This document shows positions 13,730-14,764 of a DNA stretch of 16,202 nt, one piece after another (position 1 is the first letter of the stretch; the number at the start of each line of letters is the position of its first letter). A program made the translations under genes and the position numbers. The notes beneath the pieces are model-generated. The model ran no database searches. It was not told the origin of the DNA and saw nothing but the letters and a program-made list of their open reading frames with translations. This stretch comes from a virus. Taxonomy: Duplodnaviria > Heunggongvirae > Uroviricota > Caudoviricetes. The stretch lies in IMG/VR virus record IMGVR_UViG_2718218360_000018. One strand, written 5' to 3'.

Positions 13730-13903
13730 TCATGCTGCTTTGCGACGACGAAGCTTACCCTGCTGCTCTTTACCAGAGACAGTAGCGTGAGTGAACGCAT
13801 TAGGAGCAGCCTTCATCAGAACTTCAACAGCAGCACCCATACCTGCGAATGCTTTCATTGTGTCGAACTTAACCTGTGGCTTGGTTGCTTTTTGATCTTT
13901 CAT
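13730..13903 (-). CDS. Small basic hypothetical protein (57 aa)
   Basis: Not in the ORF track (<60 aa). ATG at 13901-13903 preceded by GGGAG at 7-nt spacing; translation MKDQKATKPQVKFDTMKAFAGMGAAVEVLMKAAPNAFTHATVSGKEQQGKLRRRKAA; stop at 13730-13732. Confidence 0.4.
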   Translation of the reverse strand: MKDQKATKPQVKFDTMKAFAGMGAAVEVLMKAAPNAFTHATVSGKEQQGKLRRRKAA

Positions 13904-13947
13904 AGAAAACTCCCGAGACAGTAAAGGCGTCTCTAACCCTTTCTTTA

Positions 13948-13994
13948 AAGCTAGCTTGTTTCGCTAACTTATGCCAATCGATCATGTCGATTGG
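13948..13994. promoter_or_regulatory. Two perfect palindromes upstream of the small ORF (candidate operator sites)
   Basis: AAGCTAGCTT (13948-13957) and CCAATCGA-tcatg-TCGATTGG (13974-13994). Confidence 0.3.
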
Positions 13995-14099
13995 TGACAT
14001 CGTTTCTTAGTAGTTTAAGCACAAAACGACTGCCATAGATGTACCTTTAAGGTAATCTGGACGGGTATCCTACAATTTGTAGACCCTTCTCGTCTATAC

Positions 14100-14636
14100 C
14101 TACTGAGCAAATTTAAGAAAGATATCCTGCAGCTCATCAATGACTGCCGACATCACATAACCGCACTGTTCCATGCGGAAACCAAAAGACTCGTAATACT
14201 GCACCAGTTCTGGTACTGGCTCTACAATGTGGACAACTTTACATTCAACAGCTTTACAAAATATAAAAGCACTCATAAGAGTGAGTAAAACCATGCGCCC
14301 TTTCAATGGGTGAGATTCATCTTCTCTAGAAAACCTTTCGATCATATGGATACGAAAGATGTTTTCTTCAACCCCATAAACACAAATTGCTGCTCCTGAT
14401 GGTATTCCCTGAACCCGACCTTGCTGAACAAGTTTTATGCAGAACTCATACTTTTCTCTGGAGTTGCCATAGGTACTTAACGCATAGTCCCATTCAAGCT
14501 CACCATAGCCACCACACAGAATCTTGTAATCATCATCACTGAGCGGACCAACAGCAAGAGGTAAGCCGACATGATCAATAATCAACTGGATATTGTTACG
14601 TACTGATTGACCTATCTCGTCCAGGGTAAGCATCAT
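14100..14636 (-). CDS. Hypothetical protein, possible GNAT-fold acyltransferase
   Basis: 178-aa ORF in AT-rich DNA; C-terminal ...HPLKGRMVLLTLMSAFIFCKAVECKVVHI...ELVQYYESFGF resembles GNAT motifs A/B; candidate -10 TATAAT on the minus strand at 14667-14672. Confidence 0.5.
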   Translation of the reverse strand: MMLTLDEIGQSVRNNIQLIIDHVGLPLAVGPLSDDDYKILCGGYGELEWDYALSTYGNSREKYEFCIKLVQQGRVQGIPSGAAICVYGVEENIFRIHMIERFSREDESHPLKGRMVLLTLMSAFIFCKAVECKVVHIVEPVPELVQYYESFGFRMEQCGYVMSAVIDELQDIFLKFAQ

Positions 14637-14764
14637 GGCCTCTCAAGCGGAACACTAAAAGTCGCATTATATCTCATTCTTAAGCCGCGTATGGATTACA
14701 CCTTGAAATGAAAACGCCGGGTTCCCAATAGGCTCCCACAAAGTATATAACTATTTGTTTTTCA

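Follow-up and report, generated by a model that had tools for sequence, protein, structure and literature searches.

What do the two small genes beside the attR site of a decayed dusA prophage encode, and do they belong together? The viral record IMGVR_UViG_2718218360_000018 is a stretch of 16,202 nt (the window in what follows) that contains a complete decayed prophage inserted at the 5' end of dusA. At positions 13687-14671, on the minus strand, lies a cassette in which a promoter-like sequence, a gene for a GNAT-fold protein, a 196 bp spacer, a small gene for a 57-residue protein and a terminator follow one another (Table 1). The original prediction, made from the letters alone, had seen here a self-contained, AT-rich cargo unit with a GNAT-like protein, operator-like palindromes and a small basic protein, and had suggested that it might serve defence, act as a toxin or modify the host. 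The comparisons reported here give good support to the view that the cassette is a mobile two-gene prophage moron, formed by a divergent GNAT-fold enzyme and an obligate small partner that is predicted to be disordered.

The cassette and its inheritance as a unit

All parts of the minus-strand unit listed in the original prediction are present: the TATAAT, the open reading frame (ORF) running from 14636 to 14100, the spacer, the basic 57-residue ORF with its Shine-Dalgarno (SD) sequence, and the terminator. Some details change. An ATG at 14636 does give a protein of 178 residues, but in RefSeq and in the homologues the start is the next codon, at 14633 (MLTLDEIG...), which gives better SD spacing and a product of 177 residues. 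The terminator had been called strong and bidirectional; its 11 bp stem is indeed common to xis and the small gene, but the terminator scan calls it on the minus strand only. With a G+C content of 0.41-0.45 the cassette is only mildly AT-rich. The 57-residue ORF, which had been taken to be unannotated, is already on record (WP_000654815.1, mEp460 gp24, PHROG 2741), although labelled 'hypothetical'. Both ORFs carry that label in public records, and PHROGs 4350 and 2741 are of unknown function. Neither protein matches Pfam, NCBIfam or PADLOC at E<=1, PADLOC-DB 2.0 likewise has no match to the two window proteins or to the pairs of the P2, Klebsiella and island types, and a literature search on WP_000956557.1 and WP_000654815.1 returned no paper that mentions them.

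The region from 13650 to 14750 is 99.8-100% identical to phage mEp460, in which the two genes are gp23 and gp24 and lie between xis and attP/int. A near-identical region is present in 356 of 5426 complete E. coli genomes, so that about 7% carry this version of the cassette, many O157:H7, O111 and O103 strains among them. Salmonella, Enterobacter, Klebsiella and P2-like prophages commonly carry diverged versions.

The linkage of the two genes was examined in loci from scans with a GNAT profile (16 genome loci, 80 viral contigs and 36 metagenome contigs), together with loci from DNA similarity and exact-protein look-ups; 139 of these carry the GNAT gene. Using a hidden Markov model of the small protein, the small gene is found downstream, on the same strand and within a few hundred bases, in 138 of the 138 loci that can be evaluated, the sole exception being a contig that ends 55 nt past the GNAT gene. 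These loci include 54 distinct combinations of small gene and spacer. Order and strand are kept down to 39% identity in the GNAT protein and 25-35% in the small protein, and in at least six unrelated contexts. In loci ascertained by the GNAT gene, the co-occurrence that the original prediction had proposed as a check is borne out.

The contexts are diverse. The pair lies next to attP in dusA lambdoid phages of E. coli and Salmonella, in the late region of Enterobacter prophages between RusA/DUF968 genes and methylase plus lysis genes, at the edge of a tail-only cluster in Pseudescherichia, within the tail and baseplate genes of Photorhabdus elements, at a prophage edge in Shewanella, in a Klebsiella island with an integrase and a DUF5906 primase beside a Dus-family gene and fis, and in an E. 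coli island near ProQ/PerC-like genes. A diverged pair occupies the gpA-gpQ region of E. coli P2-like prophages, the P2 old/tin locus, which has been defined as a defence hotspot (PMC9122126). The loci of the Klebsiella-island, ProQ/PerC-island and P2 types were found through a distant homologue of the small protein, and the gene upstream of it belongs to the GNAT family (E 1e-58 to 1e-64); where loci were ascertained by the small gene (in Salmonella, Enterobacter, Klebsiella and E. coli P2-like prophages), a GNAT gene lies immediately upstream (hmmsearch E 1e-58 to 1e-100). We note that in the P2 hotspot (L152/L155 1083-2695) a HipA_C kinase-like gene and a HIRAN-domain gene lie just upstream of the pair, which is the portal-proximal element, and that both of these genes match the PADLOC candidate PDC-M03 (E 4e-36 for each). 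No mention of a GNAT or an acetyltransferase was found in two papers on the P2/P4 hotspots, one of them PMC9122126.

The two genes are not lost symmetrically. GNAT remnants occur beside an intact small gene, once as a 65-residue C-terminal piece (L154 3725-3922) and once as a truncated ORF of 72 residues (L018 6001-6219), and an intact GNAT gene with a broken small gene is found in none of the loci examined. The pair is inherited as a unit in which the GNAT gene depends on the small gene and not vice versa. The cassette has promoter motifs and a terminator, is oriented against the xis operon, sits in varied slots and is replaced in sibling phages, as is characteristic of phage morons. With its own signals and its many phage contexts, it is the self-contained, horizontally mobile cargo that the original prediction had placed at the attR end of the island.

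The replacement is seen in the sibling dusA phages Lys8385Vzw (L024 3294-4282) and SKA5 (L025), in which a Panacea protein (PF13274, E 2e-19) takes the place of the GNAT gene. The Panacea gene overlaps a gene for a 139-residue protein of unknown family, the two presumably forming a PanA-type toxin-antitoxin pair, and the same small gene follows 40 nt further downstream, without the structured leader described below. Homology between the GNAT-type and Panacea-type loci breaks off about 13 nt upstream of the small-gene ATG. Counted over the same 5426 genomes, the small gene is present in 561 (about 10%), 356 times with the GNAT gene and 205 times with the Panacea cassette. The small gene of the Panacea-type phage differs from that of the window by three non-synonymous and no synonymous changes (synonymous rate, dS, 0; non-synonymous rate, dN, 0.023), and many cluster representatives marked by K2E are frameshifted or truncated, the marker having been verified in two loci only. 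From this tiny sample there are hints that the constraint on the small gene may be relaxed once the GNAT gene is gone.

Table 1. Positions of the cassette parts and of the surrounding prophage features in the window
Feature	Position	Strand	Remarks
P1, putative promoter	14671-14666	minus	perfect -10 TATAAT, 29 nt upstream of the ATG at 14636; -35 poor
GNAT-fold gene	14100..14633	minus	177 aa; mEp460 gp23, WP_000956557.1, PHROG 4350
P2, promoter-like element	14067..14096	minus	TAGACG 14096-14091, 18 nt, TAGGAT 14072-14067; begins 4 nt past the GNAT stop
Putative structured leader of the small gene	13915..14055	minus	hairpins b, c, d, e
Hairpin b	14055-14042	minus	
Hairpin c	13994-13974	minus	CCAATCGA-N5-TCGATTGG
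Hairpin d	13970-13948	minus	3' arm includes AAGCTAGCTT (13957-13948)
Hairpin e	13933-13915	minus	GAGAC-N9-GTCTC; abuts the SD sequence
SD sequence of the small gene	13914-13910	minus	GGGAG, eight nt before the ATG
Small gene	13730..13903	minus	57 aa, net charge +8; mEp460 gp24, WP_000654815.1, PHROG 2741
Intrinsic terminator	13687..13710		common to convergent xis and small gene; 11 bp perfect G+C-rich stem, 6 G-C pairs, T-run on minus strand
xis, PrtN-family excisionase gene	13401-13682	plus	convergent with the small gene
Orphan 5' end of host dusA with attR	14762..14890	minus	pseudogene 14780-14884; attR junction ~14780-14790
pspG, then dusA	542-1579 (dusA)		
Tyrosine integrase gene	starts 1668		split by a 2.4 kb ISEc8 (IS66 family) at 2405-4847
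DinI gene, then three DUF1076 genes	5686-6327, 6409-7038, 7111-7689 (DUF1076 genes)	minus	positions and strand are those of the DUF1076 genes, which adjoin tail-fibre remnants
Tail-fibre, Lom and tail-tip fragments, then early-region remnants			between the DUF1076 genes and xis

The two proteins

The large protein has few relatives: a profile search of 1.84 billion representative proteins gives 92 homologues at E<=1e-3, mostly in Enterobacterales and with outliers in Shewanella. The window protein has no match at E<=1 to the Pfam acetyltransferase models (Acetyltransf_1/3/7/10 and others) or to NCBIfam, and one of 51 relatives reaches PF00583 (E=0.006). The GNAT resemblance noted in the original prediction is seen in its fold, which has the core order beta1-alpha1-alpha2-beta2-beta3-beta4-alpha3-beta5-alpha4-beta6 and retains the glutamate that ends beta-4, the loop before helix alpha-3 and the Tyr-x3-Gly-Phe motif of acyl-CoA N-acyltransferases. 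A profile of the wider family gives weak matches to sequences in the PDB, all of them GNATs (best E 0.026); a narrower GNAT profile returned armadillo-repeat matches only, which were dismissed as noise. The structural neighbours in a fold search include TacT3, AtaT, KacT and one more GNAT toxin.

At the position of motif A, for which the consensus Q/R-x-x-G-x-G/A between beta4 and alpha3 was used, the family has an invariant H109-P-L-K-G113-R-M with a single glycine, which aligns with a four-residue gap to the RGHGVG of nourseothricin acetyltransferase. In motif B, Y148-E-S-F-G152-F153 is invariant in all members and aligns to YRRMGF, YERFGF and YKKFGF of solved GNATs; the tyrosine before G-F in alpha4 is the general acid in many GNATs. 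The invariant set (W49, N58, K68, E100, H109, P110, L111, G113, Y148, G152 and F153) holds down to 39% identity, and this argues for the GNAT-fold protein being an active enzyme. From these alignments the large protein is a member of a strongly divergent and uncurated GNAT-fold family with a degenerate coenzyme A loop, whose fold does not reveal the substrate.

Across 108 clusters, formed at 90% identity and reaching down to members only 25-35% identical to the window copy, the small protein keeps a length of 54-60 residues and the pattern F-D-T...M-G-A-A-V-E-x-L-x-K-A-A-P...G-K-x-R...K-A-A. Compared with ten relatives, at dS up to 0.55, its gene has a dN/dS of 0.05-0.20. With length and pattern kept and dN/dS this low, the small ORF is a real gene under strong purifying selection. 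Its N-terminus is not conserved between lineages. AlphaFold2 gives short helical segments only within residues 15-37, flanked by low-confidence tails (mean confidence score, pLDDT, 61.5), and the protein is predicted to be mostly disordered, with no recognisable DNA-binding fold in the model and no Pfam match. In every lineage the C-terminus consists of a basic stretch followed by x-(A/V)-A, and the window copy ends in EQQGKLRRRKAA. As a lead, this end resembles both the ClpX degron of MuA C-motif-2, CILEQNRRKKAI, and the AA end of the ssrA tag (tag sequences from PMC12723719).

The three observations that the original prediction had named as counting against it (a match of the large protein to a housekeeping acetyltransferase, a small ORF that is not conserved, and a failure of the two genes to co-occur) were not made.

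Promoter motifs and the hairpin-rich spacer

A -10-like element (TATAAT, TACAAT, TAAAAT or TAGAAT) lies about 30-35 nt upstream of the GNAT ATG in all contexts, and its window representative, P1, was missed by a consensus scan because the -35 is weak. A second promoter-like motif, P2, which the original prediction had not seen, is found at or shortly past the GNAT stop codon. The motif T[AT]GAC[AG]-N15-18-TAnnAT is present in 43 of 51 unique spacers, compared with a mean of 0.29 and a maximum of 2 after shuffling, and it is found in spacers that are otherwise unalignable, including those of lineages at 42-55% GNAT identity. Both hexamers are invariant in the spacer alignment, and in many relatives the GNAT stop codon is itself part of the -35 hexamer. 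The window copy scores 8 of 12 against the consensus, just under the threshold of the scan. This conservation suggests that the small gene has its own promoter, and we infer from the motifs that P1 and P2 are both active.

The spacer contains four or five conserved inverted repeats. The minimum free energy fold of the window sequence holds hairpins b, c, d and e at -45.9 kcal/mol (z = -2.82), compared with -38.3 kcal/mol for the antisense strand. In an alignment of 16 diverse spacers, 94.1% of the cells in hairpins b-d pair, as against 16-43% when the partners are slid, and 22 cells show compensatory (two-sided) changes, as against 0-5; covariation as strong as this did not arise in any of 500 column shuffles. 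Pairing drops to 84.9% when read on the antisense strand, and because G·U cells (35) outnumber A·C cells (7) the pairing appears to act on the sense transcript. Hairpin d is built from at least five different arm sequences, and the CCAAT/ATTGG arms of hairpin c are swapped in one clade. A hairpin is placed directly 5' of the SD sequence in every lineage, but its sequence differs (GAGAC/GTCTC, GAGG/CCTC, CCCTC/GAGGG or AGAGA/TCTCT). The spacer hairpins are thus better read as a structured RNA leader of about 150 nt downstream of P2, and they fit DNA operators poorly. A search of Rfam at E<=1 over 13300-15300 gives sub-threshold noise around the terminators and no match in the spacer, and the leader is a small finding of its own, a structured 5' untranslated region with clear covariation that is absent from Rfam.

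Four other assignments in the spacer were tried and rejected. A hairpin just past the GNAT stop (GTAGAC...GTCTAC) is lost in relatives at 89% identity; a long-range AGAC/GTCT pairing proposed by RNAalifold is an artefact that joins the P2 -35 to hairpin e; an alternation of hairpin e with a helix sequestering the SD sequence was discarded because in the window the 3' arm abuts the SD sequence without a loop; and the spacer is not the ArcA-regulated sRNA-17 of E. coli K1, which was reported in an mEp460-like prophage (PMC7719688). The primers and sequence of sRNA-17 have no match in the window, and it maps to the mEp460 immunity region (L002 738-756), a part that the window has lost.

The original prediction had viewed two palindromes of the spacer as operator-like sites and had called both perfect. 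They are perfect in the window, but AAGCTAGCTT is the 3' arm of a larger hairpin and the two are part of the longer series of inverted repeats. It now seems very improbable that they are DNA operators at which the small protein, alone or in complex with the GNAT protein, would autoregulate the unit as in type II toxin-antitoxin loci. Apart from the perfect symmetry of both in the window, it would be in keeping with such a role that hairpin c retains its CCAAT/ATTGG half-sites in all Enterobacteriaceae spacers, and that many relatives have a further palindrome, CGGGATCCCG, in the stretch that separates the P2 -35 from its -10. However, at about 12-150 nt past the P2 -10 (about 70-120 nt for the two of the original prediction) the sites fall within a putatively transcribed leader, downstream of a conserved promoter motif and not over it; the compensatory and G·U changes make sense on the sense strand only; some lineages have swapped arms in hairpin c, and those of hairpin d vary as described; AAGCTAGCTT is not palindromic in relatives; and the small protein lacks a recognisable DNA-binding fold.

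The decayed prophage and the role of the pair

The window is chromosomal DNA of E. coli O157:H7 and aligns to strain C1-057 in four co-linear pieces of 99.9-100% identity. Its prophage is integrated at the 5' end of dusA, has int adjoining the restored gene and an orphan 5' fragment left at the opposite end, and so has the features of a dusA-associated integrative element; dusA-specific integrases and their mode of integration have been described (Farrugia et al. 2015, PMC4482086). The orphan fragment encodes DusA residues 1-35 at 100% identity (tblastn), in agreement with the RefSeq pseudogene annotation, and beyond it there is a yjbM-like DUF2713 gene. The alignment to mEp460 is perfect to about 14789 and then falls to about 85% over the stretch in which the phage has its own mimic of the dusA 5' end, and the point at which perfect identity stops places attR where the original prediction had put it. 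In free mEp460 (L002 7131-7235) this mimic has 35 codons and 71% amino acid identity and is accompanied by upstream sequence. On integration it takes over from the host promoter and start, and the displaced host promoter faces the cassette. No terminator is predicted between this orphaned promoter and the cassette, and read-through from the one into the other may occur in the lysogen.

The prophage is without capsid, lysis and replication genes and its integrase is split by ISEc8; the cassette is still intact. The remnant is probably immobilised in the window strain. In C1-057, ISEc8 sits instead between a DUF2303 fragment and yfdR, and the integrase is intact there. Decay is also seen in early genes near the cassette, where an S-adenosylmethionine-dependent methyltransferase gene has an internal stop (12239-12712) and a 3'-5' exonuclease gene (Rv2179c-like) has lost its N-terminus (13005-13364); by contrast, xis and both cassette genes are intact. 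The three tandem DUF1076 genes, which we take to belong to the NleG-like type III effector family, are further cargo still intact in the remnant.

The reading of the pair that we favour, at somewhat less than an even chance, is that it may form a toxin-antitoxin-like or abortive-infection module with a non-canonical, labile partner. In such a module P1 would drive the GNAT gene, P2 would drive the leader of about 150 nt and the small gene, and a single terminator would end transcription. The GNAT protein would be a growth-arresting acyltransferase, with aminoacyl-tRNA or another part of translation as the target by analogy to TacT, AtaT and KacT. The small protein would bind and neutralise it, or gate it, being kept in excess through its own promoter and structured leader and being proteolytically labile through its MuA/ssrA-like C-terminal tail. 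Were its supply lost through phage infection, stress or loss of the element, the enzyme would be freed, and the outcome could be abortive infection or exclusion, or a post-segregational stabilisation of the prophage remnant. We favour this reading because the dependence of the genes is one-way, because the partner is disordered and degron-like and has what appears to be its own promoter, and because the cassette is swapped for Panacea at the same slot, lies beside PDC-M03 in the P2 hotspot and is kept in a dead prophage. The toxin or defence role suggested in the original prediction is made plausible by two of these observations, the Panacea pair in the same slot of sibling phages and the diverged copy in the P2 hotspot. 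Rather doubtful is a broader claim, that the pair is a widespread and unrecognised prophage immunity or addiction module, found in P2, lambdoid, tailocin and satellite hotspots of Enterobacterales and beyond, in which a new GNAT-fold effector family with the signature H-P-L-x-G-x-M ... Y-x3-G-F would be gated by a disordered, ClpXP-labile protein of 57 residues whose level would be set by its own promoter and multi-hairpin leader.

Several observations weigh against a toxin-antitoxin-like role. Motif A is degenerate (HPLKGRM, with one glycine), and the fold search ranks toxins no higher than N-terminal, histone or polyamine acetyltransferases. All characterised GNAT toxins have an upstream, overlapping antitoxin of the ribbon-helix-helix (RHH)/DUF1778 type, whereas in the cassette the partner lies 94-196 nt downstream and has no RHH/DUF1778 domain. 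PADLOC finds neither protein. The small protein is about 90% identical among Enterobacteriaceae and the enzyme 66-72%; antitoxins are not usually the better conserved member of a pair, and this suggests that the small protein also contacts a conserved host component. In 205 genomes the small gene is retained behind the Panacea cassette.

The conservation of the partner, its survival alone and the neutral outcome of the fold search keep alive a non-toxic reading, in which an enzyme and its partner modify the host in the manner of lysogenic conversion. The GNAT protein might acetylate the small protein at its N-terminus or lysines, or might acetylate a host target (the ribosome, a nucleoid protein or a protease) with the small protein as an adaptor or substrate mimic. 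Unlikely but not to be set aside lightly, this reading agrees with a lysine-rich, disordered small protein that is more conserved than the enzyme, as would be expected for contact with a conserved host machine, and with the persistence of the small gene without the GNAT gene in those 205 E. coli genomes. It sits less well with the variable N-terminus of the small protein, and the fact that the GNAT gene is never alone, a strict one-way dependence, is better explained by neutralisation; the changes in the small gene where the GNAT gene is missing (dS 0, dN 0.023, and frameshifts) are a further, weak hint that its function is then lost.

Decidedly unlikely is a third possibility, that the pair is a counter-defence or lytic-cycle accessory of the phage, an acetyltransferase that would inactivate a host immune component or a signalling molecule. 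GNAT-fold proteins are widely encoded by phages, and the late-region slots in Enterobacter and the tail-gene clusters in Photorhabdus would suit such a use. The promoter motifs and terminator of the cassette and its orientation against the flanking early operon speak for separate expression, however, its slots are typical of morons expressed in the lysogen and of defence cargo, and it is intact in a remnant no longer able to grow lytically. That the two genes hitch-hike side by side with no functional relation is scarcely credible: the small gene does also occur behind the different, Panacea cassette, but the order and strand of the pair are the same in all the unrelated contexts and at the lowest identities given above.

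If the toxin-antitoxin-like or abortive-infection reading is correct, the described GNAT toxins would gain a family whose neutraliser is of a new kind. It would help to explain the stable keeping in enterohaemorrhagic E. coli of a decayed dusA remnant with three genes that we presume to be NleG-like, and one slot of 'unknown function' in the P2 defence hotspot would be filled.

The closest known relatives in design are the GNAT-RHH type II systems (TacAT, AtaRT, KacAT and ItaRT), which share with the cassette a toxin-sized GNAT-fold protein of about 175 residues, a location on mobile elements and the obligate pairing with the gene of a small, partly disordered partner. Identity between these toxins and the window protein is only 6-14% in structural alignments. 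In the window the GNAT gene has neither an overlapping gene nor one directly upstream, the partner differs in having a promoter motif of its own and a long, putatively structured leader, and no operator lies over the promoter in the window. With the defining antitoxin absent and the gene order reversed, the cassette falls outside the known GNAT-RHH families. Type II loci of reverse order with an extra antitoxin promoter do exist, for example mqsRA and higBA, and like these the cassette has the toxin-like gene first, the small partner second and a promoter-like element for the second gene. The antitoxins of such loci are, however, folded and DNA-binding proteins, and their genes are closely spaced, without a hairpin-rich leader of 150 nt.

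The cassette also resembles the morons of prophage hotspots, such as those of the P2 old/tin locus (PMC9122126) and the Panacea cassette of Lys8385Vzw and SKA5, in that it appears to have a promoter and has a terminator of its own and is polymorphic by presence, absence and replacement at a fixed slot, with its P2-hotspot copy beside PDC-M03; it differs in that an anti-phage role is a candidate only and the pair is absent from PADLOC 2.0. The host island shares with the described dusA elements (PMC4482086) its insertion into the 5' end of dusA, the orphan 5' fragment left at attR and, on the phage, a substitute dusA 5' end adjoining int, but these features concern the vehicle and not the cassette, which also occurs outside dusA-using elements. 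The parts of the cassette belong to known kinds, namely GNAT enzymes, phage morons and toxin-antitoxin-like pairs, and what is new here is their combination and the RNA leader.

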